From IMG/VR virus record IMGVR_UViG_2693429524_000013: a stretch of 13,512 bases of DNA; one strand, given 5' to 3'. Under the pieces are notes generated by a model, which had not been told where the DNA came from, did not search any database, and saw only the letters and a list, made by a program, of their open reading frames with translations. Each line of letters starts with the position of its first letter. Position 1 is the stretch's first letter. Positions 1 through 13,512 of the stretch are shown piece by piece. The position numbers and the translations under genes were made by a program. The stretch comes from a virus. Its lineage: Duplodnaviria; Heunggongvirae; Uroviricota; Caudoviricetes.

Positions 1-235
1 GCAGTGATGCACAAACCAGGCAACGATAAACAGGCTAACAGTGATAGCGGCGCTCAATCAGCGCACTAAATCCTAACCAGTCCGGGAAAGAGGCTGGCTC
101 TATCGACCGCTCATGCACGGGACAATGCATACCTGATAAAGGATTCTCACAAGGGACCAATCGCGAGAAAAGAAGTGGAAAGGGGCTGATTTGTGGTGTA
201 TCACTACGGCCTCAAAAGAACACTATTACCTCTTT

Positions 236-694
236 TCAACCTCTCCCCACATTTGACCAGTATTTGATTGCACCGATCAAATCATCATAGTGGCGCATTG
301 CATCATTGAAGCCTTTATAGCTTGCCCATTGTGGTGAAACTTTGTTATTGCTGAATTGCCCACTAATCAGGATAGTCTCCAGAATGTCGGCGTATCGCTT
401 GCCAATTCGCTTCCTGACGGCCTCAGAGCTTCCACCCTTTACGATTGCATTAATCAGGGCTTTTGTGTGTCTCAGGCTCTCATAGAGCATTGCAGCGTGG
501 GCAGATTCCATAAATGAGCGTTTAGGCAAATCACCCCACCCCTCAGAATGAATTGCTGCCAGTGTGGCGTAATTCAGGCCGCTATAGTGTTTCCCGTCAT
601 CCCAGCCAACCGCTACACCTTCCATCTGTGAGAGCTCTTTATGCAGCTTATCCATCATGCGCTTGTCTATGGTGCACCGGACTTTCGGACTCAT
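236..694 (-). CDS. phage virion morphogenesis protein, HK97 gp10-like head-tail joining / tail-completion family (152 aa)
   Basis: Its ATG overlaps the upstream stop (ATGA at 691-694), indicating translational coupling. The segment NYATLAAIHSEGWGDLPKRSFMESA resembles the YA..hEfG...P.RPF motif of HK97 gp10-type proteins. It sits in an operon with capsid genes. Family assignment is from memory only. Confidence 0.55.
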   Translation of the reverse strand: MSPKVRCTIDKRMMDKLHKELSQMEGVAVGWDDGKHYSGLNYATLAAIHSEGWGDLPKRSFMESAHAAMLYESLRHTKALINAIVKGGSSEAVRKRIGKRYADILETILISGQFSNNKVSPQWASYKGFNDAMRHYDDLIGAIKYWSNVGRG

Positions 695-1503
695 TTGTTG
701 ATCTCCGTGATGTCATCAAGCAACATGTTGGCCTTATCAATCATCGTTTCGTGGAACTCATTCGACACAACAGACTTATCACCTGCGGCAATCTTTCCCG
801 CTGCCTCTCCCTGTGCATATTCCCCGCGATGCTTAGCCCTGGTTGATTTCGTAGCAGCATTGCCAGCGTTACTACCCTCTTTAGCACTATTAACAGCACC
901 CTTTTGCTGTGTTTTGTTCACCTTCTTACTGTTAGTGAAAACTCCGGCATTTTCGACCATCTTCACCTTGAAGGTGCGGAATTCTTCAAAGGTGCAATCA
1001 ATAGTGATGCAGTCACCGGAGGAAGAGCTACGCTTAACTTCACATTTCGTCATGATGAAGTTCTCAAGGAGTCCGGCATCTTCACTCACCAGGCTAACAA
1101 GCTGGCGCTTGTCTCTCATTTCCATAAGTGCCTGAACAGCGGCAGCAGGGCGCATAGATTCACGGGGATTATCTGGATCAGTGTTCCGGTCGATGTAGTT
1201 CTCTTTCCGGATGATATGAGGAGAAGAGGTAATAATGCCCGTAAAGCTGACAGATTTATCTTTAATGACGGCATGGTCTGACATGGTGGTGCCATCCTCG
1301 ACCGCATAGCTCGATTTCTCAACAGGGAACGAATAGCTGACATCAGAGATAGAGTCAAAGAAGATAGCCACGTTATCGGTATAGTTGAAGCCATCCATTA
1401 TATTTTTGTTTTGTGAATATCCCCCACACATAACAGTGAATGCAGGAGATCTCGACTCAGCTTGTTTTGCAGCTGTCAGAGCATCATTAGCCATATTAAA
1501 CAT
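691..1503 (-). CDS. hypothetical virion structural protein with a Lys/Ala/Gly-rich C-terminal low-complexity tail (~270 aa from ATG 1503 or 1494; the track ORF extends to a TTG at 1611)
   Basis: Long minus-strand ORF coupled to the downstream gene. The 1611 start is a TTG with no SD. GGAGG lies just upstream of ATG 1503 and ATG 1494. The central segment SFPVEKSSYAVEDGTTMSDHAVIKDKSVSFTGII looks like a beta-rich tail/baseplate-type fold, but no family is recognised with certainty. Confidence 0.6.
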   Translation of the reverse strand: MFNMANDALTAAKQAESRSPAFTVMCGGYSQNKNIMDGFNYTDNVAIFFDSISDVSYSFPVEKSSYAVEDGTTMSDHAVIKDKSVSFTGIITSSPHIIRKENYIDRNTDPDNPRESMRPAAAVQALMEMRDKRQLVSLVSEDAGLLENFIMTKCEVKRSSSSGDCITIDCTFEEFRTFKVKMVENAGVFTNSKKVNKTQQKGAVNSAKEGSNAGNAATKSTRAKHRGEYAQGEAAGKIAAGDKSVVSNEFHETMIDKANMLLDDITEINK

Positions 1504-1699
1504 GCCTCCAAATTGGTCCACTTCTTTCGCTGGCTTAGCCAGGTGACTAAGGTCACCCCTTCGGGCGTGAGTGGATTTAGCTAAAGCTAAACCTGCAAAA
1601 GATGCAGGCAAAATAGAACTTATCGTTGCCCTGCTTAAAATCTGCAGAAAATACAGGGCAGTTATTCGTTAGAATCGCTTATAGCTCTTCCCGAGAGCG

Positions 1700-1951
1700 T
1701 TATTTTGCAAAACGATTATGGGCATTCAGGGCTTTTTTGCGGTCCTGTGCCTGTTTTCGTGCAATAAAATGTTCGAAAGTCTCGGCCCAGGTGCATTTAT
1801 TATATTCACGGTATTTATGCATAGCCTGGCGGCTAACGTCATAGCAGGCGGCAAATGTGGAGATACGCAGGAATTCCGGCAGATCCTCGTCATCGATATG
1901 GATAATATCAAAAGGCACGTCGTCACGGTCGCCGTATAAAACAATTTTCAT
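1700..1951 (-). CDS. small HTH DNA-binding protein (83 aa from ATG 1951; the track start at 1960 is a GTG)
   Basis: GAGGTG SD lies 6 nt upstream of ATG 1951. The segment ISTFAACYDVSRQAMHKY reads as helix-turn-helix. Its position between the capsid gene and the next structural gene is unusual. Confidence 0.6.
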   Translation of the reverse strand: MKIVLYGDRDDVPFDIIHIDDEDLPEFLRISTFAACYDVSRQAMHKYREYNKCTWAETFEHFIARKQAQDRKKALNAHNRFAK

Positions 1952-1983
1952 AAAAGACACCTCAAAAACTTAAGACGGGGATA

Positions 1984-2036
1984 ATAAAAAAAGGGAAGAG
2001 GGAAAGACCTATCCCCGATCTCTCACCTCTTCCCTT
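1984..2036 (-). terminator. strong rho-independent terminator after the major capsid gene
   Basis: Perfect 11-bp stem AAGGGAAGAGG (1991-2001) / CCTCTTCCCTT (2026-2036). On the minus strand it is followed by a run of 7 U (plus-strand A run 1986-1992). The plus side has TGCTTTTATTT, so it may act bidirectionally. Confidence 0.8.
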
Positions 2037-2047
2037 TGCTTTTATTT

Positions 2048-2062
2048 GGCCTTCGAAGAAGG
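2048..2062 (-). repeat. copy of the CCYTC-NNN-GARGG-CC mini-hairpin, immediately 3' of the capsid stop codon
   Basis: The minus strand reads CCTTCTTCGAAGGCC. This matches 14 of 15 positions of 6650-6664 (CCTTCTACGAAGGCC). Confidence 0.6.
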
Positions 2063-2065
2063 ACC

Positions 2066-3112
2066 TTATTTAGCCTTGGCTTTTGCCAGAGCAGCGGCGG
2101 CGGAGTTACTAACACTCACTTTAACCACAACTTCAGGCATCATGTTCATGAAAGCATAAGAGGATTCAATGAAGATTTCTCGTTTACCTCTGGACTCTTC
2201 CATATACATGAAAGCTTCACGTGCAGCGCCGTTTGCAAGCTTCAGGTTGCGAGCGCAAGGGCCGAAAAATTGAGTATAAACGCCCACCATATCGCCTAAC
2301 GCATGTGGCTGGAATTGTGGGACCAGATAAGCAGTATTCTCTGGCAGACTATCCATTTGCACCACACGCAGGGCTAAGCCCGGAATGCGGAAGGTCGGGA
2401 AGCCCGGCAGAATATCCTCAGGGAACATCAGGCCTTTGTCAGTGATATTTTGATTGCCGAACAACAGCACCTTACGGAGCAGTTCATCAGTCTGAATTGC
2501 AGCAAAGAGTTCAGCACGGCAGAACAGGGTGAAACCACGCAGAGCACGAACGACACCACGCTGTTTAACCTTGCTCAGTGCAACCAGGTCCTGCAGCTGT
2601 TTAAGGATATCTTTAGCTAAATCCACTTCTGAAGTGGTTTGCTGTGCGCCCAGCAGTTCGCACACATTCAGTTCTTTACCCTTGGTGAGGATAATTTTGT
2701 TCTCAAAGAGAGCAAGCTGGCGTGCTTCTTCGTGGGTCTGGCGTAAGCCTTCGCCAAGCTGAATAACACGACGAGCGGTTACAGACTCTAAATTCTCTTC
2801 GGAATCTTTGCCCGGAACGCGGATACCCTGCCAGTCAGAAGGATAAATAGCACTTGATGCGGCAGTGAATGCCATATCACCCGTGCCCGTTTCACGCTCA
2901 TCTGCGGTAATGGTCGCCATCTGTTCACCGTAGCGAGGATACTGACCGAAAGCAGATTGTTTCACCTGGCGAACTTTGTCATATTCAAATTTAAAGGTAT
3001 TGCACAGAGCAGTAGTGTTGAAGATATCCATTGCTGAAATAATCTGGTTATCCAGCGGGATGTCTTTAATCAGACCACACAGATCGCGAACTTCGAATTC
3101 TTTCTTAGCCAT
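2066..3112 (-). CDS. major capsid protein, lambda gpE-like family (348 aa from ATG 3112)
   Basis: AAGGAGG SD lies 6 nt upstream of ATG 3112; the track start at 3118 is a TTG. Size (~350 aa), position directly after a decoration-protein gene, and overall sequence character match the phage major capsid protein E family. A strong terminator lies downstream. Confidence 0.8.
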   Translation of the reverse strand: MAKKEFEVRDLCGLIKDIPLDNQIISAMDIFNTTALCNTFKFEYDKVRQVKQSAFGQYPRYGEQMATITADERETGTGDMAFTAASSAIYPSDWQGIRVPGKDSEENLESVTARRVIQLGEGLRQTHEEARQLALFENKIILTKGKELNVCELLGAQQTTSEVDLAKDILKQLQDLVALSKVKQRGVVRALRGFTLFCRAELFAAIQTDELLRKVLLFGNQNITDKGLMFPEDILPGFPTFRIPGLALRVVQMDSLPENTAYLVPQFQPHALGDMVGVYTQFFGPCARNLKLANGAAREAFMYMEESRGKREIFIESSYAFMNMMPEVVVKVSVSNSAAAALAKAKAK

Positions 3113-3123
3113 CTTCAACCTCC

Positions 3124-3459
3124 TTATTGTGCAACACGCAAATCGCCATTGCTGGCAGCGATAACAGCGGCTAAGCCGTCTTTATCCACGTAGGCCGGAT
3201 TGATGTAGCAACCTTTGTTCGCAACAACGATAAAAGCGTCACCAACCTCAGCACGTTCTACAACCAGCAGCGGAGTTTTATCTGTGTGCGTTGCTTTAAC
3301 GAAGGTCTCAACCTCGCCAGCCTCAGTAACCACAACAACAGTGCCAGCCGGAATCTCAGCTTTAACTTTGTTTTTAATCTCAACGTCGCGAATACTAAAT
3401 TGCTCATCTGCGGCGTATGAAATGATGTGTCCGCGTGTGCGGATAGTCATATCTCTCAT
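3124..3459 (-). CDS. head decoration (capsid-stabilising) protein, gpD-like / DUF2190-like (111 aa)
   Basis: 111 aa beta-rich protein encoded immediately upstream of the gpE-like capsid gene, matching the lambda D-E order. AGGTGA SD precedes ATG 3459. The segment LLVVERAEVGDAFIVVANKGCYINPAYV resembles decoration-protein cores. Confidence 0.6.
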   Translation of the reverse strand: MRDMTIRTRGHIISYAADEQFSIRDVEIKNKVKAEIPAGTVVVVTEAGEVETFVKATHTDKTPLLVVERAEVGDAFIVVANKGCYINPAYVDKDGLAAVIAASNGDLRVAQ

Positions 3460-3584
3460 TTGATCACCTGCGATTTAAATTAACTCCCCTCAAAGAGTTC
3501 CGGTATAACCTCTCAAACCGCGACAGGCTCGGGCCGAAAAGTTATGCCGGAAATCTAAAGGGAAATTGATACAAGGAAAGGGAG

Positions 3585-3614
3585 ATAGCCCCGCACCGTC
3601 CAAGCGGGGGCTAT
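3585..3614 (-). terminator. GC-rich stem-loop in the leader of the capsid operon (possible attenuator)
   Basis: ATAGCCCCGC (3585-3594) pairs with GCGGGGGCTAT (3604-3614) with one bulge. On the minus strand it is followed by CUCCCUUUCCUUG, which is only moderately U-rich. Confidence 0.3.
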
Positions 3615-3787
3615 TCCATATGGGGAAAACCAACAACAGTTGGCTGATAGTTCACAGTATGGTTACGGTTACTAGAGAGCACTATCACGAAAGGCACTCC
3701 CCCGAATCAGTTCAGGCTGCGGTCACATCAGCGGGGAAATACCTTTCGGGATAGCTACCCACACAGAAAACCCGCAAAAGAAAACTG

Positions 3788-3796
3788 TGTGGATAA
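3788..3796. promoter_or_regulatory. consensus DnaA box (TGTGGATAA = TTATCCACA)
   Basis: Exact 9/9 match to the R-type DnaA box. It is a single copy in the non-coding leader. Confidence 0.3.
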
Positions 3797-3943
3797 CTAG
3801 CCCAATAGGAGAATTAATCGACCACTCAACGATGATCAGGGTAGTGTTATTTATAAGGCGGCACCGCTACCTGGTCGCCGTTACTTTGGAGGAAAATACG
3901 GCAAATCAAGATCTTCTCACATTGATATTGACGCCATATGTAT

Positions 3944-3972
3944 ATTATATCAGTATTTACTCACATTGTCAA
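3944..3972 (-). promoter_or_regulatory. perfect-consensus sigma70 promoter firing leftward toward the capsid operon
   Basis: The minus strand reads TTGACA (3972-3967), a 17-nt spacer, then TATAAT (3949-3944), with a TGn extended -10 (ctgaTATAAT). The -35 context is TTGACAAT, as in the three rightward promoters. Confidence 0.75.
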
Positions 3973-4070
3973 CACCCTGATTATATAAATTCTAATAATT
4001 AGCGTAGTAACGGTATTTTCAGACCTCTATCAATCCCATCAATACGTCACCCCACCCTTTAGACATATAC

Positions 4071-4101
4071 ATCTATCACTACTTTATAAAGCCTGATAGA
4101 T
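4071..4101. promoter_or_regulatory. operator-like inverted repeat ATCTATCA-N15-TGATAGAT
   Basis: 8-bp perfect arms at 4071-4078 and 4094-4101 with a central TTTATAAA. It is part of a set of five CTATCA/TGATAG hexamers between 4027 and 4222. Confidence 0.35.
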
Positions 4102-4195
4102 ATCCGTTGATCCTGATCAAGGTTTTCCGGGGATTTACCCGGTTATAGTTCGAATCAAGGAAGGGGAGCATTGATAGCACCCAAACCGAACAAAC

Positions 4196-4213
4196 AAATC
4201 AACTTCTCGCAAA
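4196..4213 (+). repeat. 18-nt motif AAATCAACTTCTCGCAAA, copy 1
   Basis: Identical to 4739-4756. It ends exactly 11 nt before ATG 4225. Confidence 0.85.
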
Positions 4214-4224
4214 AGGTGATAGTT

Positions 4225-4347
4225 ATGGGTATCAAGAACAGTGCCAGCGCATGGCAAAAGGCCAGGTTTCATCACCCACACATTGTTAAGGCAATTGAGG
4301 TGGTTGGAGTGTTAGCCCTGATGTTAGCTCTGTGTGTGGAGGTGTGA
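4225..4347 (+). CDS. 40-aa small membrane peptide (MGIKNSASAWQKARFHHPHIVKAIEVVGVLALMLALCVEV)
   Basis: Not in the ORF track because it is under 60 aa. AGGTGA SD lies 7 nt upstream. It has a hydrophobic C-terminal helix. Its stop is followed 1 nt later by another SD-led ATG (4349, 22 codons). Confidence 0.45.
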   Translation: MGIKNSASAWQKARFHHPHIVKAIEVVGVLALMLALCVEV

Positions 4348-4449
4348 GATGGGCAAAGGAGGCAAAGCATTTTTTAATAGGTCTGGCTATCCTGGATGTT
4401 CTACTAATCATGATTGAGCGGAGTTTATGAACAGCATTGAGAGGAGTTT

Positions 4450-4710
4450 ATGACGGGGGCTAAAGATATCAGGAGACTGAGGGAAGAGCTGATAGCTGAA
4501 ATTAAAGCTAAGGCAAAGCAAATGGAGATAGCCGCACAAATGGATGTAGCGGAACAGATGTACAAGATGGTTGAAGAGGGAACACCACGACAGGTTATCG
4601 CTAAAACCTTCGGTGTGGGGATCGCCACCGTGCACAGAAGGCTGAAAGCCTATGCCGACTACCACAACATTGAGAGAGGGGAGGATGGGAGATTTAAGAA
4701 GAATAAATAG
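4450..4710 (+). CDS. small coiled-coil plus C-terminal HTH DNA-binding protein (86 aa)
   Basis: GAGGAG SD is present. The segment TPRQVIAKTFGVGIATVHRRLKAY is a resolvase/sigma-region-4-style HTH. Its ATG overlaps the stop of an 8-codon uORF (4427-4453). GGAGTTTATGA is duplicated at 4420-4430 and 4443-4453. Confidence 0.75.
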   Translation: MTGAKDIRRLREELIAEIKAKAKQMEIAAQMDVAEQMYKMVEEGTPRQVIAKTFGVGIATVHRRLKAYADYHNIERGEDGRFKKNK

Positions 4711-4738
4711 TGTGAACAGTCCAATAGGTTATTAACTT

Positions 4739-4756
4739 AAATCAACTTCTCGCAAA
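4739..4756 (+). repeat. 18-nt motif AAATCAACTTCTCGCAAA, copy 2
   Basis: Identical to 4196-4213. It ends exactly 11 nt before ATG 4768. Confidence 0.85.
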
Positions 4757-4767
4757 GGGGTACCACT

Positions 4768-5289
4768 ATGTTATTCCAGAAAGACAAAGAATCAGTAAAT
4801 AAAAGGCTTTTTAAAGAACTGGTAAAAATGTTCTTTCAGTACACTGCAGCGTTTTTGATAGCCGGGCCTTGGTTAATGGCTATCTGTTTTTACCCTGCTA
4901 CCTTGTTTATTGGCAGTAGCAAGTTCGGCGATGGCCCGTTTCATGTGGATATTGGTTTTATAGATTCTCTCCTGATCCGTCCTATAAATGCTGTTCTCAA
5001 TGCTTTCTACTTCCCAACTAGTCTAGAGGGGTGGGCGGTAACCTGGGGTGTTTTAGGCTTAGCATATGTATATTGGTTGGTTGGCTTTTTGTGGGGTGCA
5101 ATCTGTGCTCTCCTCGATATTGATACAGGATCAAGCCGTAGGAGTAGTGGTAATAATAGCGGAGCGGGTGTATATGCACACGTAGGTACCAGAGGGGTAA
5201 GTATCACCGCAGGTACCCGATTCGCTGGCGGCTGGCTGAGTATAGGCAAACGCGGCGTTAGTTGGAGAAAAAGCAAAAAACTGTTCTGA
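4768..5289 (+). CDS. integral membrane protein (173 aa) with a Gly/Ser/Arg-rich C-terminal tail reminiscent of DUF4236
   Basis: Two long hydrophobic segments are present: FFQYTAAFLIAGPWLMAICFYPATLFI and WAVTWGVLGLAYVYWLVGFLWGAICALL. The tail GTRGVSITAGTRFAGGWLSIGKRGVSWRK resembles DUF4236. A clean terminator follows. Confidence 0.75.
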   Translation: MLFQKDKESVNKRLFKELVKMFFQYTAAFLIAGPWLMAICFYPATLFIGSSKFGDGPFHVDIGFIDSLLIRPINAVLNAFYFPTSLEGWAVTWGVLGLAYVYWLVGFLWGAICALLDIDTGSSRRSSGNNSGAGVYAHVGTRGVSITAGTRFAGGWLSIGKRGVSWRKSKKLF

Positions 5290-5297
5290 CCTACCAG

Positions 5298-5318
5298 GGG
5301 GCCATCACGGCCCCTTTT
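5298..5318 (+). terminator. rho-independent terminator of the accessory cassette
   Basis: GGGGCC (5298-5303), loop ATCAC, GGCCCC (5309-5314), then TTTT. Confidence 0.8.
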
Positions 5319-5342
5319 CTATTTCCAGTCGCTATAGCTCCT

Positions 5343-5414
5343 GAGTAATTCCACTCCCTGAGGTCGTGATCAATTCCACACCCTACCCCCTGATCAATTA
5401 ACCCCTATTTAATG
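5343..5414. repeat. three ~24-bp direct repeats (TGATCAATTCCAC-type)
   Basis: AATTCCAC occurs at 5347-5354 and 5372-5379. TGATCAATT occurs at 5367-5375 and 5391-5399. A related 17-mer CCCCTGATCA(A/T)TTAACC occurs at 5387-5403 and 6284-6300. Confidence 0.6.
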
Positions 5415-5446
5415 GGTATTTAATGCCTATTTATTGATTTAATCCG
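5406..5446. repeat. AT-rich 11-bp phased repeats (TATTTAATG x3-4), resembling a DNA-unwinding element
   Basis: TATTTAATG at 5406-5414 and 5417-5425, TATTTATTG at 5428-5436, ATTTAATCC at 5438-5446. The period is 11 bp. Confidence 0.55.
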
Positions 5447-5514
5447 TTTTATGCCACAACCGCCCGGTTGACAGAGTAAGAGAGAGGGTGTAACCCTTTT
5501 TCGTAATACTAATG

Positions 5515-5530
5515 AAATCAATAAGTTAGC
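5515..5530 (+). repeat. 16-nt motif AAATCAATAAGTTAGC, copy 1 (matches IHF consensus WATCAANNNNTTR)
   Basis: Identical 16-mer at 13259-13274. The core AATCAATAAGTTA fits WATCAA-N4-TTR. Confidence 0.6.
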
Positions 5531-5584
5531 TTAATAGGCCTTTTCTCTATTTTTGTCAAATTTAACATACCCTAAAAAACTGCA

Positions 5585-5618
5585 AAATCTGGCTGCAAGA
5601 TTATCTGCAGCTGGATTT
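5585..5618 (+). other. 34-nt imperfect hairpin
   Basis: AAATCTGGCTGCA pairs with TGCAGCTGGATTT. There are 13 pairs, including two G-T pairs that are wobble only if the plus strand is read as RNA. Confidence 0.4.
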
Positions 5619-6520
5619 CTTACACCTCATTTTGTGGTATCACCCTGACTAGTTTGTGCATAAATTGAACAGTTTTTAACATTTCCTCTTCACCTGGTAA
5701 CCACACAAAAAGCTAAAAACGAGGCACAGATAATCTTAGAGGCCTATTTTCTTGTTATCACTCTGGAAACGTCGTAGAAGTGATTTTGATGAAAGGCGAC
5801 CTACCCTATTACACCCCCATTTTTTGTTATCACAATTGCATCCTGTGTGGCTATATGGCTATGTGCTGAAAGCGGTCTCGGGTGTGGGTGTCAGAAATAT
5901 CCATTAGCGGTATTTGAGCTTATGGGTAACTCGTCTGAGGTGCCAGGCAGGCGCTCCCCTACCTCCCTTTTTTCTTCTAACAATTCTCAAATATCACACC
6001 ACTGCCCACCACGTTGCTATTATGTTAATTCTTAAGCTTTGCTGTATGTTGTGCACATTATTTATTCAGGTGGCTGTACGTAAATTCTGTGCCCACTGAT
6101 CATGATTTTTAAATCAGATTTTGTAGTGCGGTTTCTTAGTGCTGATAAGATCTATTATGTTAAATGCAATTTTCCCAACCCTTCAAATCAATGACTTACA
6201 TGTAAGCATGCACTAACACCACACACAGCACATTAGACGTATAGATGGCTATATCCCACATATTTGATTGTTTTGTAGTCATTCCCCTGATCATTTAACC
6301 AGTATAGTTTGTTATCTGCAGACCACAAAATCGGAATTTACATCTGATTAACATAATCTGTTAGCATGATCACCATTACCCACACAACAATAACCCCATG
6401 TAAGCCTCTTCAGGCAATTTATCGGCGTGTTGGTGTGAACAGTCTTTCATGTTCTTTATGTATCAGTTGTCCTGTGTGGTGATTTGGTGGACTGCCCCAG
6501 GGGCCATACTTATGATGCCC

Positions 6521-6559
6521 GGTCAACATAGCTGTTGATAAAATCAACGGGTGTTGACC
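6521..6559. promoter_or_regulatory. twin palindromic operator-like sites
   Basis: TCAACA-tagc-TGTTGA (6523-6538) and TCAAC-gggt-GTTGA (6544-6557), with centres 20 bp apart. Outer arms GGTCAACA and TGTTGACC also pair. Confidence 0.45.
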
Positions 6560-6632
6560 TGCATATTTCCCACACATGAGAGGAAATCAGAGCAAAGAGA
6601 GAGGAGAGAGGTTTGTTAGTCACATATGGTGA

Positions 6633-6664
6633 TTTGAGCTCATCTCAAACCTTCTACGAAGGCC
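6633..6664 (+). repeat. two-hairpin module, copy A
   Basis: TTTGAG-ctcat-CTCAAA (6633-6649) abuts CCTTC-TAC-GAAGG (6650-6662), followed by CC. The 5' flank is TCACATATG. Confidence 0.65.
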
Positions 6665-6719
6665 TTTGCTAGTCAAAATCAAGTCACATTAGAGTCAAAT
6701 CAGATGCAATCAATCCCCC

Positions 6720-7051
6720 ACCTGTTGGGATTTCCCACATGTTCAACCATACACAGGAGCTAACCTGTTGGGATTTCCTACAACCCCTTTCAGTCATACT
6801 CAGGCACCACACCCCGGTAAATATTTCCCTACTACCCCGGAGAATTTCTCCGCACTACCTGTAAAGAATTTTCACACCTGTGTGTTTATACAATCATACT
6901 CTCCTGTTTTGCAGTCATTGCACCCATGATACACAGCCCTAACCTGTAAAATATTTTTACTACCCCGCCAATAATACGGCCCATACCTGTAAAATATTTT
7001 TACTACTACCTGTCAAAATCTTTTACTACTACCTGTAAAAATATTTGACAC
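6720..7051 (+). repeat. array of nine ~21-23 bp iterons, consensus ACCTGTAAAATATTTTTAC(TAC); candidate replication origin or centromere
   Basis: Units start at 6720, 6763, 6813, 6836, 6857, 6942, 6985, 7008 and 7031. The last three abut with exact 23-bp phasing. Each unit has an internal dyad. Confidence 0.8.
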
Positions 7052-7080
7052 TAATAGATAAAGTAATAGACCACACAATA

Positions 7081-7118
7081 GATCCCCCTAACCCCCCAGG
7101 GGGGAATGGGGAGGGATC
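7081..7118. repeat. G/C palindrome GATCCC...CCCCCC-A-GGGGGG...GGGATC followed by G-tracts
   Basis: C6-A-G6 lies at 7092-7104. Outer arms are GATCCC (7081-7086) and GGGATC (7113-7118). Downstream G-tracts (G6, G4, G3, G4) fit a loose G-quadruplex pattern. Confidence 0.6.
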
Positions 7119-7167
7119 AGAGAGTGGGGAAGGTTTTCTAAGGGAAAAGCTTAACCCACAAATGAAA

Positions 7168-7196
7168 GCCTAAAGAGCATTAGCGACTCTTTAGGC
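7168..7196 (-). terminator. 10-bp perfect hairpin, terminator-like on the minus strand
   Basis: GCCTAAAGAG (7168-7177) pairs with CTCTTTAGGC (7187-7196) across a 9-nt loop. The minus strand continues UUUCAUUUG. There is no U run on the plus side. Confidence 0.45.
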
Positions 7197-7208
7197 AATC
7201 TGTGTGTG

Positions 7209-7243
7209 GGGTGACAATGTATTCCATACATGACACGTCACCC
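7209..7243. other. nested hairpin
   Basis: Outer stem GGGTGAC (7209-7215) pairs with GTCACCC (7237-7243). The inner hairpin is ATGTAT-tcc-ATACAT (7217-7231). Confidence 0.5.
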
Positions 7244-7271
7244 TGCTCACATGTGTGGTCCACTTCGTGGA

Positions 7272-7310
7272 TTTGAGTTCACTCCGTAACTCAAACCCTC
7301 TACGAGGGCC
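7272..7310 (+). repeat. two-hairpin module, copy B (compensatory changes relative to copy A)
   Basis: TTTGAGTT-cactccgt-AACTCAAA (7272-7295) abuts CCCTC-TAC-GAGGG (7296-7308), followed by CC. It is preceded by CCAC-ttc-GTGG (7260-7270) and the flank TCACATGTG. Confidence 0.65.
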
Positions 7311-7356
7311 TTGTGTGGGGAGCGTAGTGCGATAGCACGTAGCTATATAATGTGGA

Positions 7357-7390
7357 GTCCGGATAAGAGACTTCTGTTTCCAATCCGGAC
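7357..7390. other. 8-bp perfect hairpin with an 18-nt loop
   Basis: GTCCGGAT (7357-7364) pairs with ATCCGGAC (7383-7390). Confidence 0.5.
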
Positions 7391-7410
7391 CGTTTAAGCG
7401 AGTGGTTTCT

Positions 7411-7436
7411 CGCGCGCGTGCACGCACACATATATA
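7411..7436. repeat. 26-nt perfectly alternating pyrimidine/purine tract (Z-DNA-prone)
   Basis: CGCGCGCGTGCACGCACACATATATA. It contains the 10-bp palindrome GCGTGCACGC (7416-7425). Confidence 0.7.
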
Positions 7437-7461
7437 AAGGATACACTCATAAATCGAAAAT

Positions 7462-7480
7462 AAGGCCCCTAAATGGCCTT
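7462..7480 (-). terminator. hairpin, terminator-like on the minus strand
   Basis: AAGGCC-cctaaat-GGCCTT. The minus strand continues AUUUUCGAUUU. Confidence 0.4.
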
Positions 7481-7616
7481 CTGGCTGCATTAACTAGTTT
7501 GAGTAGTGTAATTGCATTACCTGATGCTCAAATCGCGTTGTAGGGCCTCTTATGATGTTTGAGTTTAACACCCTCCAAAGTTTTAACAAAAAGTGCTCTC
7601 CCTCCATTGTGGGCCA

Positions 7617-7646
7617 TTGACAATCTTATTGCATAAATGCTATAAG
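7617..7646 (+). promoter_or_regulatory. strong sigma70 promoter P1 (rightward)
   Basis: TTGACA (7617-7622), 18-nt spacer, TATAAG (7641-7646), with TGc extended -10. The -35 context is TTGACAAT. Confidence 0.6.
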
Positions 7647-7744
7647 TTATTCTGTTTTTGACACGGTAGGGGACATTAATAATGCTTACCCCTTTGCTGT
7701 GGACTTGTTTGTACCTATAGCTCGCCTAAATGATAATGATTCCC

Positions 7745-7774
7745 ATTGACAATTGGTTGTCAATATGATAAGAT
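7745..7774 (+). promoter_or_regulatory. sigma70 promoter P2 (rightward) with an overlapping 20-bp palindromic operator
   Basis: TTGACA (7746-7751), 17-nt spacer, TAAGAT (7769-7774), with TGa extended -10. The operator ATTGACAA-ttgg-TTGTCAAT spans 7745-7764. Confidence 0.6.
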
Positions 7775-7936
7775 TATAGATAGTGGGAGAAACAGATCCG
7801 GAGGTCAACGTGGAACTGAGCGACGCTATAGCGATCATCAACCTGGCTGTAATGTGGTGCGGTGTTGCCTACATAGCCGGAGTAACTGCAATCGACAACC
7901 TTGAAGAAAAAATGATAGATAAATACAAAAAGATTG

Positions 7937-7965
7937 TTGACAATCTCGCAAATAGCTGATAAAAT
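7937..7965 (+). promoter_or_regulatory. strong sigma70 promoter P3 (rightward)
   Basis: TTGACA (7937-7942), 17-nt spacer, TAAAAT (7960-7965), with TGa extended -10. The spacer contains TCTCGCAAA (7944-7952), the core of the 18-nt motif. Confidence 0.7.
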
Positions 7966-8016
7966 ATAAAGCATAGGGTAATTCTCATCATAGTGAATTT
8001 TCCTTTAATGAACTGG

Positions 8017-8044
8017 CGGGAGCTATTAGTTCCCGTTTCTTTTT
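8017..8044 (+). terminator. rho-independent terminator/attenuator between P3 and the first early gene
   Basis: CGGGA (8017-8021), 9-nt loop, TCCCG (8031-8035), then TTTCTTTTT. It lies ~50-70 nt downstream of the predicted P3 start and 44 nt upstream of ATG 8088. Confidence 0.6.
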
Positions 8045-8087
8045 AACCCTATATCGCACAGGCGGTGAGCTAACAGGAGATTGAATC

Positions 8088-8297
8088 ATGGCTAAAACCG
8101 GACCGATAAGCCAGCTGGTAAACTGGACTACTGACGAAATCGTCGAGAACGTGCTTAAAGGTAACTTTCGCAAAACTTCCGTTTATGCATTTATTCGAAA
8201 ACATAAAGGAGAATATCCACACATTGAAGCGGCAATAGAAAGATTAAACTTTATTAAACTTGAGCGCCAGCTGGAAAGATATAAACATCTGATTTAA
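8088..8297 (+). CDS. small early protein (69 aa), possible Cro/excisionase-like DNA-binding protein
   Basis: AGGAG SD lies 8 nt upstream. It is the first gene after the tandem promoters. The function call is weak. Confidence 0.7.
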   Translation: MAKTGPISQLVNWTTDEIVENVLKGNFRKTSVYAFIRKHKGEYPHIEAAIERLNFIKLERQLERYKHLI

Positions 8298-8317
8298 TAA
8301 ATAATTGTGAGGGAATT

Positions 8318-9202
8318 ATGGCAAACAATAAACTGGGGGCACATTTCACCCCCATTTTTAAACGTTTTATCAAGTATAATTTTGAAAATCCAATTGCAAA
8401 AACTACAACAGGCAAAGAGAGATTTAATTTAAATGCGACGGAATTGATAATTTACGGGGAAATGGTTGGCTTTCATTTAAACGGCAAAGAAATATTCATC
8501 TCGGAGCAGACCTTAGCAGATGATTGGGATTTTTCAAGACCAACGATTATTAAAGCTATTAAATCTCTAGTAAATGCTGGGATTATTTCTAAAGATAACC
8601 GGAAAGGCAAATCTAACATTTACAAACTGTTAATTACACCTGAGCAGTTTGATAAAATGTGCGATGAGCAGGGTATTAAAACCTTAGACAGTGTGGGAGA
8701 CAGCAAAGAGGCACCTGCTACACAGGCCCAAGATAATCAACAGGAAGCCCCAAAACAAGCCACACAGCAGCCTGAAAAGCCCGAGGCAATGCAATCCCCT
8801 TCCCAACCTAAAAAAGAACACAGAGAACGCCGTAGAGACGCTGGCAAACGTGAAATAGATGAGCACGGTTATCCGATTCTGACAAGCGATGAAATGAATG
8901 CCAGATATAAAGTAATTCAGGCCGCATTTAAAGATCAGAAGAGAATTAAATTATCTGAATTGCGTGATACATTTTACGGGCCGGAGGTGATGGATAAAAT
9001 TAAAGGCACTATTCCTGATAAAATCTGGAAAGAGGAAGATTACTGGCACCTGACAGAGCAGGCCCTTAAGGTAGCTCAACACGTGGTTAAAAGAGGCAAA
9101 TCAATTATTATTGATTCTATTAGTCATGGCTATGATGCACCGAAAGAAAGGTTGTGGAACAACTGCAAGCTTGTAAAAGGCGAATTGACAATTACAAAAT
9201 AA
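8318..9202 (+). CDS. replication initiator candidate: N-terminal winged-HTH (lambda O / replisome-organiser-like), Gln/Pro-rich linker, C-terminal domain (294 aa)
   Basis: The N-terminal segment ISEQTLADDWDFSRPTIIKAIKSLVNAGIISKDNRKGKSNIYKL is a classic wHTH of phage/plasmid initiators. A low-complexity linker APATQAQDNQQEAPKQATQQPEKPEAMQSPSQPKK follows. The three-part architecture resembles lambda O. Confidence 0.6.
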   Translation: MANNKLGAHFTPIFKRFIKYNFENPIAKTTTGKERFNLNATELIIYGEMVGFHLNGKEIFISEQTLADDWDFSRPTIIKAIKSLVNAGIISKDNRKGKSNIYKLLITPEQFDKMCDEQGIKTLDSVGDSKEAPATQAQDNQQEAPKQATQQPEKPEAMQSPSQPKKEHRERRRDAGKREIDEHGYPILTSDEMNARYKVIQAAFKDQKRIKLSELRDTFYGPEVMDKIKGTIPDKIWKEEDYWHLTEQALKVAQHVVKRGKSIIIDSISHGYDAPKERLWNNCKLVKGELTITK

Positions 9203-9240
9203 ACATTCTTATTTTTAAGTTCATCAAAGGAAAATTTAAA

Positions 9241-9387
9241 ATGTATGGCGATTTTGATTATTACCTGGAAAAGGAAAAATATTTTGAAGATGAACTATCA
9301 CAACATTTTTCATATTGGGAAGAATATTGTGGTTGGTTAGCTGAAGATCCAGCAGATGAAGAAAATGATTCTGACATCCCTTATTAA
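9241..9387 (+). CDS. 48-aa hyper-acidic, aromatic-rich early protein (track ORF 9154-9387, trimmed to ATG 9241)
   Basis: AAGGA SD lies 9 nt upstream of ATG 9241; the longer form would overlap the upstream gene by 49 nt. The sequence is MYGDFDYYLEKEKYFEDELSQHFSYWEEYCGWLAEDPADEENDSDIPY, with 16 of 48 residues Asp or Glu. Confidence 0.55.
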   Translation: MYGDFDYYLEKEKYFEDELSQHFSYWEEYCGWLAEDPADEENDSDIPY

Positions 9388-9478
9388 TACCCCCAAATAA
9401 ACCAACAAACTACTAAATAAACTAATTACTAGAACTAGATTGATTGCCCTGATCTTTTAAACGTTCGGAGAATTAATC

Positions 9479-9964
9479 ATGTTCAAATCTGATCTTTCTG
9501 ATTCCCAATTTGAAAAACTGGTAGCACTGCAGAAATACCTCCCCAGTGATGATCAACCAACACGACAGGCCAAACACTTATTAGTCGAGGGCTTTACCCC
9601 TGAATTCGTTGCGGAATATACAGGCGTTAAACTTGAGAAAGTCCAAAAACTATATAATGAGTCCTGGAATCCACGGTGTCGAGTTCCCCTCAGTGTCTAT
9701 AACGACATAGATAGAGATAAAAATGTCTTCGAAGATCGCCGCCGCAAATCTCTTTTAATGTGGAATTGTGGGATGAATATTGAAGAGATAGCAAAAGAAT
9801 TAAAAGTAACCTGCTTTCATATATGGGGCTTGTTGAGCGACCTCCTGCCACGTAAGGAGCTTAATCAACGTTTGCCTAAGCCCGGTAGTCGTGCTTATCG
9901 CGAATTTATATTCATCTACCGCCGCCATAGCAATAAAGTCCGGAAAGCAATGCAGCGCAAATAG
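9479..9964 (+). CDS. double-HTH (sigma-region-4 / LuxR-like repeats) DNA-binding protein (161 aa)
   Basis: GGAG SD is present. Two HTH-like modules are seen: LLVEGFTPEFVAEYTGVKLEKVQKLY and LLMWNCGMNIEEIAKELKVTCFHIWGLL. The C-terminus is basic. Confidence 0.7.
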   Translation: MFKSDLSDSQFEKLVALQKYLPSDDQPTRQAKHLLVEGFTPEFVAEYTGVKLEKVQKLYNESWNPRCRVPLSVYNDIDRDKNVFEDRRRKSLLMWNCGMNIEEIAKELKVTCFHIWGLLSDLLPRKELNQRLPKPGSRAYREFIFIYRRHSNKVRKAMQRK

Positions 9965-10001
9965 CTTATAGCCTTCACATATACCGCAAGTTATTGATTC
10001 T

Positions 10002-10027
10002 GCCGTCCGGTAAATATGCCGGATGGC
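10002..10027 (+). other. intergenic 9-bp hairpin
   Basis: GCCGTCCGG pairs with CCGGATGGC (one G-T pair) across an 8-nt loop. It sequesters the ATG at 10023, arguing that the real start of the next gene is 10053. Confidence 0.5.
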
Positions 10028-10052
10028 TCATATAAATTTTAAGGAATTCCAA

Positions 10053-10496
10053 ATGTCTCAAATCGCTAAATTATTATCCCAGGTTATCAAAGCTATCGAC
10101 GCTGAAGATTCAAAAGTTCGCCAGGATCTTTTAGATGGCAAGTTTACCAACACCCTGGCATTTACCCGTGACAAAGAGCACTTCTTAAAACACAGGCATC
10201 ACGCTTTTGCTGAATGCAAGTCCGCCAATGGTGATGTTTTTTATGTCGATTTGGTGGTTATGGCATGCAGATTGTGGATGATTCAAGACCTTATGCGCCA
10301 GCACGGAGATGATCCCCTCCTCAGCATGTGGGATAACGCCAAGGATGGATTCGTGATCGCGGCGCTATCCAAATCAATGATTGAGGCAGAAGGTGCCAGC
10401 CTTCAAAACATGGCAGACCTCTTCGAAATAAGCGTAGGAATGATGCAGGCCATGCTGCAGGCGGTGAAGCCTCTCAAACTGGTCAATCTTGAATGA
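10053..10496 (+). CDS. hypothetical helical protein (147 aa from ATG 10053; the track start is 10023)
   Basis: AAGGA SD lies 8 nt upstream of ATG 10053, whereas 10023 has no SD. No family is recognised. Confidence 0.7.
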   Translation: MSQIAKLLSQVIKAIDAEDSKVRQDLLDGKFTNTLAFTRDKEHFLKHRHHAFAECKSANGDVFYVDLVVMACRLWMIQDLMRQHGDDPLLSMWDNAKDGFVIAALSKSMIEAEGASLQNMADLFEISVGMMQAMLQAVKPLKLVNLE

Positions 10497-10503
10497 TTAA
10501 TAA

Positions 10504-10534
10504 GCACCCTCAAAAAATGGGGGTGCCTTTATTT
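10504..10534 (+). terminator. rho-independent terminator
   Basis: GCACCC (10504-10509) pairs with GGGTGC (10521-10526), followed by CTTTATTTATCTT. Confidence 0.65.
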
Positions 10535-10570
10535 ATCTTACTTTTCACGTTTATCTAAAAGGATATGCCT

Positions 10571-10954
10571 ATGAATATTGAAGAAATGATAGTTGAATTC
10601 GATGAGGGTGATTTCCTGGAAGATGGGGAGTTTAAATACTCCCGTTTTAAACAGGCGTTATTTAGCAGTGAGGATAAACCACACGTTAGTGATCTTAACG
10701 ATGATGATTTATGTCGCTGGGTATGCACCCGCTTATATGAAGATGGAAAATATACAGGCCAAAACTTTCCAAATCTCTATTTCAAAGCACAAACATTTGA
10801 GGAAGGGCAAAGAGTGAAAAACCTGGTCGATAAAATGCTGTCAGCCGGATATTTGCATAAAGAATTATTAAATCCTAAAGCTGAAAGCAAGCGCCATTAT
10901 ATTTTTGTGTGGACTATTGGCGATAAGTGTCCACTAAGACGCAAAGGCAAATGA
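10571..10954 (+). CDS. acidic hypothetical protein in the tail-assembly-chaperone position (127 aa from ATG 10571; the track start is 10565)
   Basis: AGGA SD lies 7 nt upstream of ATG 10571. The N-terminus is acidic (EEMIVEFDEGDFLEDGEF). It sits two genes upstream of the tape measure gene. Confidence 0.65.
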   Translation: MNIEEMIVEFDEGDFLEDGEFKYSRFKQALFSSEDKPHVSDLNDDDLCRWVCTRLYEDGKYTGQNFPNLYFKAQTFEEGQRVKNLVDKMLSAGYLHKELLNPKAESKRHYIFVWTIGDKCPLRRKGK

Positions 10955-10955
10955 T

Positions 10956-11141
10956 ATGAATACCTACGAAAAGATTTATCAAAAATTAAAAAGTGATAAC
11001 AATGCTCCCGTCATCAAGGGCGGGGCTTCTTCCTCTGGTGACCTCTCAATCGAAGAGCTTGCGGAGAAATATAATATTGATAAAGAGGCCCTGAAAAGAG
11101 CTATTTCATTATCAAAATCTTTAAGACAGGGCGAGGTGTAA
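10956..11141 (+). CDS. 61-aa protein immediately upstream of the tape measure gene (HTH-like segment LSIEELAEKYNIDKEALKRAI)
   Basis: It starts 1 nt after the upstream stop. Its stop overlaps the SD of the tape measure gene. Confidence 0.6.
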   Translation: MNTYEKIYQKLKSDNNAPVIKGGASSSGDLSIEELAEKYNIDKEALKRAISLSKSLRQGEV

Positions 11142-11144
11142 GAG

Positions 11145-13247: not shown

Positions 13248-13258
13248 TATTGTGATCT

Positions 13259-13274
13259 AAATCAATAAGTTAGC
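13259..13274 (+). repeat. 16-nt motif AAATCAATAAGTTAGC, copy 2 (IHF-consensus match)
   Basis: Identical to 5515-5530. It lies 12 nt after the tape measure stop. Both copies are preceded by TAATA(C/T). Confidence 0.6.
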
Positions 13275-13296
13275 CTGACCGGATAAACTCCAGGCA

Positions 13297-13329
13297 AGAA
13301 AAAAGCCCCTAAGTGTTAACAAAGGGGCT
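13297..13329 (-). terminator. rho-independent terminator for a leftward (convergent) transcript
   Basis: AGCCCCT (13304-13310) pairs with AGGGGCT (13323-13329) across a 12-nt loop. The minus strand continues UUUUUUCUU. The plus side has no U run. Confidence 0.65.
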
Positions 13330-13350
13330 CTTCTCCGGTATCCTTTTGAT

Positions 13351-13466
13351 GCGGGGCAAAACCTGCTAACAAAAATCAACCTCTCGCGAGACTAATGTTA
13401 GCAGGTTGCCGGAAGGTAAGTCAACTCCGGTCTATAAACCTTAAAGCGACTATAAAATTGCCCCGC
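13351..13466 (-). ncRNA. candidate structured RNA (three helices) ending at the 13297-13329 terminator; strand and function uncertain
   Basis: Outer 9-bp helix: GCGGGGCAA (13351-13359) with TTGCCCCGC (13458-13466). Perfect 12-bp helix: AACCTGCTAACA (13360-13371) with TGTTAGCAGGTT (13396-13407). Third helix: CCGGA (13409-13413) with TCCGG (13426-13430). Confidence 0.3.
13373..13390 (+). repeat. 18-nt motif, diverged copy 3 (AAATCAACCTCTCGCGAG, 15/18)
   Basis: It lies in the 24-nt loop of the 12-bp hairpin. The core has become the 10-bp palindrome TCTCGCGAGA. Confidence 0.6.
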
Positions 13467-13512
13467 CAATTGTGATGATCCGACCTTTGAGGCGGGTCCG
13501 GTGCCCAGGGGG

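Follow-up and report, generated by a model that had tools for sequence, protein, structure and literature searches.

Satellites of bacteriophages must silence their virion genes until a helper phage arrives, and must then outcompete that helper. To our knowledge, the known satellite solutions to this problem are protein-based, involving repressor-antirepressor pairs, helper activators or capsid-remodelling proteins. The immunity RNAs of P4 (CI) and of P1/P7 (c4) are processed from the leader of the operon that they control. In the pR'/6S/tR' region of phage lambda, a strong sigma70 promoter lies before the virion genes and a short non-coding transcript ends at an intrinsic terminator preceding the late genes, the expression of which requires read-through, achieved by Q antitermination. 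In Salmonella, the long antisense RNA STnc6030 of prophage BTP1 blocks phage by means of a seed of ~36 nucleotides (nt) directed against a structural gene; this RNA, of ~500-786 nt, is highly expressed and is cis-encoded opposite its target, with the seed at its 3' end (PMC7067206). Here, we describe the leader of the capsid operon of a circular, plasmid-like element of ~13.5 kb, essentially all of which is contained in the stretch of DNA analysed (13,512 nt, IMG/VR virus record IMGVR_UViG_2693429524_000013, Caudoviricetes; hereafter referred to as the window, positions 1-13512). Its features suggest a hitherto undescribed plasmid-borne satellite of a virulent rV5-like myophage, and the element appears to place the gating of its capsid genes and the targeting of a helper message in one RNA. 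The functional statements made below are predictions from the sequence.

The window was compared with 24 further E. coli-type elements (plasmids, metagenome contigs and read-archive assemblies) and with three more diverged relatives reached through their capsid protein, hereafter referred to as L010, L015 and L017 (82%, 42% and 31% capsid identity, respectively).

Promoter, untranslated leader and terminator-like hairpin

The first-pass annotation had placed a perfect-consensus promoter before the capsid operon (3972-3944, minus strand), and this assignment was borne out. The -35 hexamer TTGACA (3972-3967) and the extended -10 element TGaTATAAT (3952-3944) are separated by a 17-nt spacer and match the sigma70 consensus at 12/12 positions, with the additional TG at 3952-3951; no other 12/12 site is present in the window. 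Promoter-like matches were no more numerous across the window as a whole than in shuffled sequences, and the case for this promoter therefore rests on its perfect match and its conservation. Both hexamers are unchanged in 23 of the 25 E. coli elements, the other two having TACAAT, and promoters were also recognized in L010 (TTGACA-17-TAAAAT with TG), L015 (TTGTCA-17-TATAAT) and L017 (TTGACA-17-TAATAT with TG). The predicted transcription start (+1) lies at ~3937, 478 nt upstream of ATG 3459. In the window, L010, L015 and L017, the interval from the terminator to the first head gene contains no promoter-like site matching at least 10/12 positions, and no plus-strand promoter-like site was found in 3460-3972. 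TGATAG-type repeats, comprising an inverted pair and a direct pair, lie just upstream of the -35 hexamer (4024-4098). This motif occurs 15 times in the window, with eight copies clustered in the divergent intergenic region 3645-4490, and TGATA overlaps the -10 element. By inference only, these repeats may be operators for the divergently encoded HTH_7 protein of 86 amino acids (aa; 4450-4710), in which case the leader promoter would be repressible, rather than constitutive. The second-best promoter match in the window (TTGACA-17-TAAAAT with TG, 11/12) lies at 7937-7965 on the plus strand, upstream of small genes and the replication initiator and near overlapping promoter-like sites at 7736-7784.

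The leader had been described as ~480 nt without an open reading frame (ORF), and this is essentially correct: over its 478 nt, the transcribed strand contains only ORFs with TTG or GTG starts, of at most 48 aa, and the indels distinguishing relatives are of 1, 2, 4 and 5 nt, not multiples of three. A terminator-like hairpin, AUAGCCCCCGC-UUGGACG-GUGCGGGGCUAU (3614-3585, minus strand), which folds at -17.9 kcal/mol, is followed by a C/U-rich tail at 3584-3568 (feature 3568-3614). The tail, CUCCCUUUCCUUGUAUC, is pyrimidine-rich with three U in its first eight bases, and a terminator scan gave no call here because it is U-poor. The stem-loop of the first-pass annotation is thus upheld, whereas the partly U-rich tract said to follow it is degenerate. 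L010, L015 and L017 each have a canonical intrinsic terminator at the same relative position, formed by a hairpin of -17 to -23 kcal/mol and a U-run, such that a strong hairpin lies 303-443 nt from +1 in four clades, with a U-run in three. In the window, hairpin 3585-3614 is predicted to form the 3' end of an RNA of ~360 nt. A further hairpin (3498-3552, minus strand, -27.4 kcal/mol) is found after the terminator. The 10-bp arms reported earlier (3541-3550 and 3500-3509) form its base, with nine of the ten positions pairing in the transcript and one C.A mismatch, and hairpins are present at this relative position in L010, L015 and L017.

All four clades therefore have the same layout: a near-consensus sigma70 promoter, an untranslated RNA of 360-440 nt, a terminator or, in the window, a terminator-like hairpin, and a spacer of 115-195 nt before the head genes, the similarity extending to the further hairpin and ribosome-binding site after the terminator. 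This layout, which persists down to 31% capsid identity, fits a terminator-gated virion operon and constitutes the strongest support for the earlier idea that a strong promoter plus a leader terminator keeps the late genes silent. The part of that idea that invoked the lambda Q mechanism was not supported. Scans of the 20 ORFs of the window against Pfam and PHROGs identified no antiterminator family, in agreement with the statement that no Q-like gene is recognizable there.

A conserved structured RNA in the leader

Folding and conservation suggest that the leader is a conserved structured RNA without an Rfam family, a feature overlooked in the first-pass annotation. Relative to shuffled sequences, the transcribed strand had a folding z of -4.6 in the window, -4.5 in L010, -5.3 in L015 and -4.7 in L017; the opposite strand of the window had a z of -2.0. 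The sense strand was more stable than the antisense strand in all four clades, with 13-18 G.U pairs, and this asymmetry argues for a structure formed by RNA rather than DNA. The well-folding part of the window leader corresponds to its first ~360 nt. Within it, positions 3751-3900 are 98% identical across 11 full-length elements, a value equal to that of the best coding regions and above that of the capsid gene (89-95%).

Several modules can be recognized on the minus strand. Hairpin H1 (3877-3902) has a pyrimidine-rich loop, UUUUCCUCC, and equivalents in L015, L017 and L010 with the loop UUUUCCCCU or CUUUCUCC. The most conserved motif, CCAGGUAGCGGUGCCGCC-UUAUAAAUAACA-CUACCC (H2, 3839-3874), contains the invariant GGUG.CG....AUAAAUAACA within a helix, GGUAG/CUACC. 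According to RNAalifold, two-sided changes in L015 maintain four of the helix's five pairs, with no pair broken. A UUCUCC loop is also among the conserved modules. The two long hairpins H3 (3748-3803, -28 kcal/mol), which has a DnaA-box-like sequence in its 5' arm, and H4 (3688-3748, -28.6 kcal/mol) are followed by hairpins H5 and H6 (CCAAC-UGUU-GUUGG; 3630-3688). In L010, the 19-bp stem of H4 is kept, with its inner half rewritten from CCCC/GGGG to AGGUG/CAUCU, and H3 is likewise retained with an inner half that has changed yet remains paired. Within the E. coli clade, H6 has changed from CCAAC/GUUGG to CCGAC/GUCGG, with preservation of the pairing. Helices H1-H4 are retained in L010 and L015 despite their different sequences. 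Covariation was assessed with RNAalifold and by helix-by-helix folding, as MAFFT did not bring the stems of the diverged clades into register; with three to four independent lineages, the covariation is suggestive, not statistical.

Rfam searches of the window, its relatives and the phage, at gathering and permissive thresholds, retrieved phage tRNAs only. No match was obtained over 3300-4500 at E values up to 10, C4 and RNAI included, L010, L015 and L017 had no match to C4 or any other Rfam family, and a tRNA/tmRNA scan found none. Neither phage I29 nor L017 has the conserved H2 motif. A search for this motif in IMG/VR gave 12 matches, which is about chance level by a rough estimate, and these were not retained as homologues. 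The string CCGCCCAG-N5-GGTGGCGG-N3-ATAAATAACA, with the same spacing as in the most conserved motif of the leader, is found in three GC-rich phage contigs of IMG/VR (L022 3995-4015, L023 4338-4358 and L025 3176-3196). In these contigs, it lies in an intergenic spacer of 125 nt, with extra flanking bases in common, and TATAAATA resembles a T4-type late promoter; the likeness to the leader is due either to chance or to a small motif that is shared. In the full-leader fold, nt 6-14 of the RNA (GUCAAUAUC, 3932-3924, in the 5' cassette described below) pair with GAUAUGAC (3453-3446), at a probability of ~0.9. The latter corresponds to codons 3-5 of the 111-aa ORF; the pairing may be due to chance, and other cassette types do not obviously retain it.

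A hypervariable 5' cassette complementary to a phage head-operon gene

At a permissive threshold, comparison of the leader with the phage collection identified ~65 Vequintavirus genomes, all of them matching over the first 35 nt of the predicted transcript only. The match (3938-3904; I29 52502-52536) has 32/35 identity, with an E value of 8e-4 against 2.3 Gb and of 1.7e-6 against I29 alone. It lies on the strand opposite a gene named 'Inh' or annotated 'inhibitor of prohead protease' (rV5_ev168, I29), located directly downstream of the phage capsid gene. The satellite RNA would, thus, be antisense to the late head-operon message of the phage, a relationship likewise overlooked in the first-pass annotation. 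Two of the three differences are accommodated as G.U pairs, giving 33/34 pairs. The similarity breaks off sharply at both ends. A gene-remnant origin of the 35-nt match was considered and rejected, as the plus-strand ORF spanning it (3787-4002) has no similarity to the Inh protein. The sharp ends and this lack of protein similarity argue against an extended gene remnant.

The matching segment (3904-3938, minus strand) corresponds to a hypervariable 5' cassette. Among the 25 elements, seven cassette types of 32-43 nt are found, flanked by a promoter and a scaffold that do not vary; the start of the cassette lies within 1-2 nt of the predicted +1, its end coincides with the beginning of the scaffold, and the flanks are ~98% identical. 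Type A, which is that of the window, is present in four elements. Types C and C2 (seven elements) match the same Inh site at 33/37 positions. Type B (five elements) has a 14/14 match elsewhere in Inh and on the same strand, with an E value of 0.009 against the 100 kb of I29; by our own arithmetic, such a match is far less likely to arise by chance once the identity of gene and strand is taken into account. No target was found for types D (seven elements), E (one element) and F (one element). Only types A and C were found to have an extended stretch complementary to a phage transcript in the antisense orientation.

The element and its probable helper

The window is matched at 92-94% identity, across more than 80% of its length, by seven complete E. 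coli plasmids (13.2-13.7 kb), and one further matching plasmid record is a 39.6-kb multimer. Nucleotide comparison revealed no match of the window to a chromosome, nor any in the phage collection. The element is known so far from E. coli only (the seven RefSeq plasmids, metagenome contigs and read-archive contigs), and all E. coli-type relatives share one gene map. The first gene of the head module, preceded by the Shine-Dalgarno sequence AGGUGA (with the ATG, 3457-3469, minus strand), encodes a 111-aa protein (3124-3459, minus strand) in the position of a head-decoration gene, without similarity to a phage decoration protein. It is followed on the minus strand by the gene for the major capsid protein (2066-3118, minus strand; phrog_29 at 8.6e-21), an 86-aa gene, a gene for a Dit-like 'tail tube initiator' and a tail-completion gene. 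The plus strand carries the small HTH_7 gene, a 173-aa gene, ~2.4 kb that are gene-free, an O/DnaD-like replication initiator gene, several small genes and the gene for a tape measure protein. No terminase, portal, tail tube or sheath protein was recognized among the 20 ORFs in the Pfam and PHROGs scans.

The capsid proteins of the distant relatives match PF03864, and the capsid protein of the element is 24% identical to that of phage I29 (E 2e-13). The family is tiny and isolated, with 29 clusters at E <1e-3 among 1.84 billion representative proteins, the next clades lying at 42% and 31% identity; the distant relatives surfaced only through exhaustive protein search, and capsid-protein searches of the viral and genome contig collections found nothing. 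The order small gene, capsid gene, small gene, Dit-like gene is kept in L010, L015 and L017. The tail-tube initiator is 51% identical to that of the rV5-like virulent myophages (Vequintavirinae), in which the tape measure protein has a distant homologue (~26% identity). The closest homologues of the tail-tube initiator, tape measure and capsid proteins are thus all found in Vequintavirinae, as are the nearest matches of several short DNA stretches, and on the basis of these tail and capsid proteins an rV5-like virulent phage is probably the helper. The rV5-like group is in use for O157 typing and biocontrol, and we found no paper linking Vequintavirus to satellites in the searchable literature. 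The rV5 genome has sigma70-like promoters throughout and lacks a T4-type late sigma factor, and its late genes have an upstream motif, TggTAaAAtA (PMC3606486). This motif resembles the extended -10 element of the leader (TGaTAtAAtA in the window and TGaTAaAAtA in L010); within the window, it shows no enrichment, and no copy occurs between the terminator and the ATG.

Other non-coding stretches of the element also deserve mention. Within the gene-poor region 5290-7700, a segment of ~900 bp (5551-6450) has no ORF of more than 62 aa and is 94-98% identical across 11 elements, with hypervariable stretches on either side. Window positions 5972-5995, 6398-6418 and 7729-7747 match a repeat with a period of 594 bp in the ORF-free I29 region 104.0-104.9 kb. 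Segment 5551-6450 could be a helper-like origin, a packaging site or a further non-coding RNA. A two-hairpin element of ~46-50 nt, ACGCCCGAAGGGGTGACCTTAGTCACCTGGCTAAGCCAGCGAAAG, is present at 1523-1568 (minus strand) and is 93% identical to ORF-free I29 DNA (105473-105517), with a diverged second copy at I29 102736-102785. It also occurs at L005 3595-3646 and 10511-10557, L003 8553-8599 and L011 573-619, its location varying among satellites; in some, it lies inside a small ORF, which is lengthened from 186 to 237 nt. One of its hairpins displays a compensatory change (CTGGC/GCCAG versus CTGCC/GGCAG), no Rfam match was found, and it could represent a small structured element, mobile or regulatory, common to phage and satellite. 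Finally, a stretch of 61-68 nt, ~85% identical to I29 intergenic DNA near the phage tRNA cluster (63362-63429), is present in some relatives (L003 4983-5044, L008 7026-7086 and L011 4704-4771), the window having no copy.

A proposed role for the leader RNA

We tentatively favour, with slightly less than even confidence, an interpretation in which a terminator-bounded leader RNA gates the capsid operon and also acts as an antisense RNA directed against the helper. The consensus promoter would produce a non-coding RNA of ~360 nt composed of an exchangeable cassette of 32-43 nt, a multi-hairpin scaffold of ~290 nt and a terminator hairpin located ~115 nt upstream of the satellite head genes. In the plasmid state, most transcripts would stop at or near the leader hairpin, such that the RNA would be abundant and expression of the promoterless capsid operon low. 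During the late phase of the helper, the cassette would pair with the head-operon mRNA within Inh. The most likely consequence would be cleavage or destabilization of the helper message, favouring the satellite capsid protein; the 35-bp duplex would be a plausible substrate for RNase III. The satellite head genes would be expressed by read-through of the leader terminator, through a factor not encoded by the element. The production of the RNA, its ends, its pairing in vivo and the effect of that pairing, the rV5-like identity of the helper and the read-through route are all points that we infer.

Several observations weigh against this interpretation. Cassette types B, D, E and F, accounting for 14 of the 25 elements, have no convincing target: searches of the phage collection with types B, D and E, and of IMG/VR with types B and D, gave no extended match, and the cassettes of L010, L015 and L017 had chance-level matches only. 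Other short stretches are common to the satellites and I29, and the 35-nt match could be a remnant of recombination. Within Inh, the complementary site falls in the final quarter of the ORF and not at a ribosome-binding site. The 5' and 3' ends of the RNA are predictions, and the hairpin of the window, with its degenerate U-tract, may be leaky. Moreover, when the cassette was forced into a single-stranded state in silico, the pairing probabilities of the terminator were unchanged. This last result bears most directly on an extended version of the proposal, in which the leader is a programmable riboregulator: the cassette would act as a guide that senses the late mRNA of the helper, cripples the helper capsid and triggers read-through of the satellite's own terminator, and it would diversify in an arms race with the helper target site. 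We regard this version as distinctly doubtful, as sequestration of the cassette did not weaken the terminator hairpin, so that no link between pairing and read-through emerged and triggering by pairing found no support. Unrestricted prediction of RNA duplexes between the RNA and the downstream leader yielded long duplexes that, for the window, were no better than those of shuffled sequences, and this line was abandoned.

Alternative interpretations

The layout conserved in four clades would also be expected if the gate were driven by a protein, as the first-pass annotation had suggested, with a helper antiterminator or polymerase modifier opening the leader terminator, the RNA serving as a loading or pause platform and the 35-nt match being a scar. 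This is unlikely in our view, despite the lack of a promoter belonging to the head genes, the evidence of DNA exchange provided by the other short satellite-phage matches and the large proportion of cassette types with no known target, all of which it accommodates. A candidate helper factor can be named, as one Vequintavirus gene (I29 gene 11, L032 6682-7722) is annotated 'anti-termination protein', but this annotation has no Pfam match and the equivalent gp11 is described in the rV5 paper as an Srd-like anti-sigma factor (PMC3606486). The element itself encodes no Q-like or N-like protein, and a protein gate would leave unexplained the presence of a phage-derived antisense piece exactly at +1, in a sharply bounded variable cassette. 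If the hairpin were simply leaky, the leader could instead be a plain, long, structured 5' untranslated region of a continuously transcribed operon, with a role in mRNA stability, RNase III processing or the tuning of translation. The degenerate U-tract of the window clade and the absence of a terminator call are consistent with this possibility, as are the several helices of 19-22 bp that could be RNase III substrates and the predicted pairing of the cassette with codons 3-5 of the first ORF. We nevertheless judge it unlikely: strong canonical terminators occupy this position in the three other clades, a multicopy plasmid would pay a high price for expressing capsid protein continuously from a consensus promoter, and the combination of a near-invariant scaffold with a variable cassette would have no explanation.

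Two further possibilities separate the RNA, or the DNA, from the control of the head genes. RNA genes typically combine a strong promoter with a discrete terminator and a conserved structure, as seen here, and the element replicates as a plasmid with an O/DnaD-like initiator; the leader might therefore encode a stand-alone plasmid RNA involved in copy number, maintenance or immunity, resembling P4 CI/P1 c4 or a replication primer, its proximity to the head genes being incidental. This is very unlikely, given the lack of any Rfam match (C4 and RNAI included, at E values up to 10), the lack of an antisense promoter on the opposite strand and the position of the RNA, which is constant, directly before the head genes, in four clades whose other regions differ. 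The DnaA box of the window's clade could be taken as support for this reading or for a DNA-level site, that is, a replication origin or a packaging (cos/pac) site for the helper terminase, with conservation reflecting protein binding. As the first-pass annotation had reported, a consensus box, TTATCCACA, is present at 3796-3788, exact and unique in the window. However, it lies inside the 5' arm of H3, a 19-bp hairpin, and the L010, L015 and L017 leaders lack it. It is probably incidental, since it is clade-specific and the other clades keep the hairpin without the box. A DnaA-dependent origin would have conserved boxes and an AT-rich unwinding region, and a single non-conserved box in a hairpin arm is all that was found. 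The leader sequence CGGCGACC was considered as a possible lambda-like cos site; it matches eight of the 12 cos bases, is not conserved in L010 or L015 and has no match in phage DNA, and it was rejected. An element without its own terminase does need a helper-compatible packaging site somewhere, and the leader is among its most conserved regions. A DNA-level site is nevertheless extremely unlikely here, as the folding is strand-asymmetric with many G.U pairs, compensatory changes keep the stems, the DnaA box is missing in other clades and, beyond the 35-nt cassette, there is no similarity to any phage DNA.

If the leader does combine a terminator gate with a helper-directed antisense RNA, it would be the first RNA-mediated interaction between a satellite and its helper found in the searchable literature: among papers joining phage satellites, antisense RNA and helper phages, no title or abstract describes such an RNA. 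It would also represent a new class of structured RNA without an Rfam family, and would map a family of ~13.5-kb E. coli plasmids resembling satellites of virulent rV5-like phages. Should the riboregulator version hold, the element would possess an RNA-based sensor of helper late transcription, in an undescribed plasmid-borne satellite. If the cassette match is a recombination scar, a well-supported new terminator-gated late operon with a conserved leader RNA would remain.

Comparison with known systems

Comparison with other plasmid and bacterial RNAs set the leader apart from several well-described types. It does not resemble the RNA II/RNA I system of ColE1, having no RNAI match and no opposite-strand promoter, on an element with its own initiator. 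Like Hfq-dependent small RNAs, it has a putative 5' seed, an A-R-N-like motif, AUAAAUAACA, and a predicted terminator at its 3' end, which bears a U-tail in three clades, but it is three to four times the typical length, its seed is of 35 nt and the window clade lacks the U-tail. A trans-acting RNA pairing with the 5' part of the leader could, hypothetically, decide the fate of the terminator, as in the pT181 and pIP501 attenuators or in STAR and toehold riboregulators; however, the paired segment lies more than 280 nt from the terminator, and its sequestration in silico had no effect. The C4 RNAs (P4 CI and P1/P7 c4) offer a further parallel, as regulatory RNAs of an E. coli satellite or plasmid prophage that derive from an untranslated leader behind a constitutive promoter and exert control by premature termination. 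The leader has no sequence or structure match to C4, however, and no internal complementarity of the seqA/seqB/seqC type was found in it; the operon controlled would be that of the capsid, rather than an early or replication operon, and the complementarity is to another genome.

For the gate itself, the layout is like that of lambda pR'/6S/tR', with a strong sigma70 promoter before virion genes; a short non-coding transcript ending upstream of the late genes is also predicted, at a canonical terminator in L010, L015 and L017 and at a hairpin with a poor U-tract in the window. The lambda-type Q antitermination evoked in the first-pass annotation is disfavoured: no ORF of the element has an antiterminator or other Q-like domain, there is no Q gene, and the helper is probably a virulent myophage of the rV5-like group rather than a lambdoid one. 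Q-binding elements vary between Q families, and the -10-like hexamers in the early transcribed region do not constitute specific evidence for a Q-type pause. The leader is also twice as long as that of lambda, highly structured and strongly conserved, and carries a phage-complementary cassette, and the terminator of the window clade lacks a U-tract. For the antisense component of the proposal, STnc6030 provides a precedent, in that it is also a long RNA of a mobile element, acting against a phage through a seed of similar length (~36 nt) complementary to the mRNA of a structural gene; in our case, such a function is predicted. The leader RNA differs in being trans-encoded, on a separate element, and complementary to its putative target over its first 35 nt only, the rest of the molecule being an unrelated conserved scaffold that would double as the leader of the satellite's own capsid operon.

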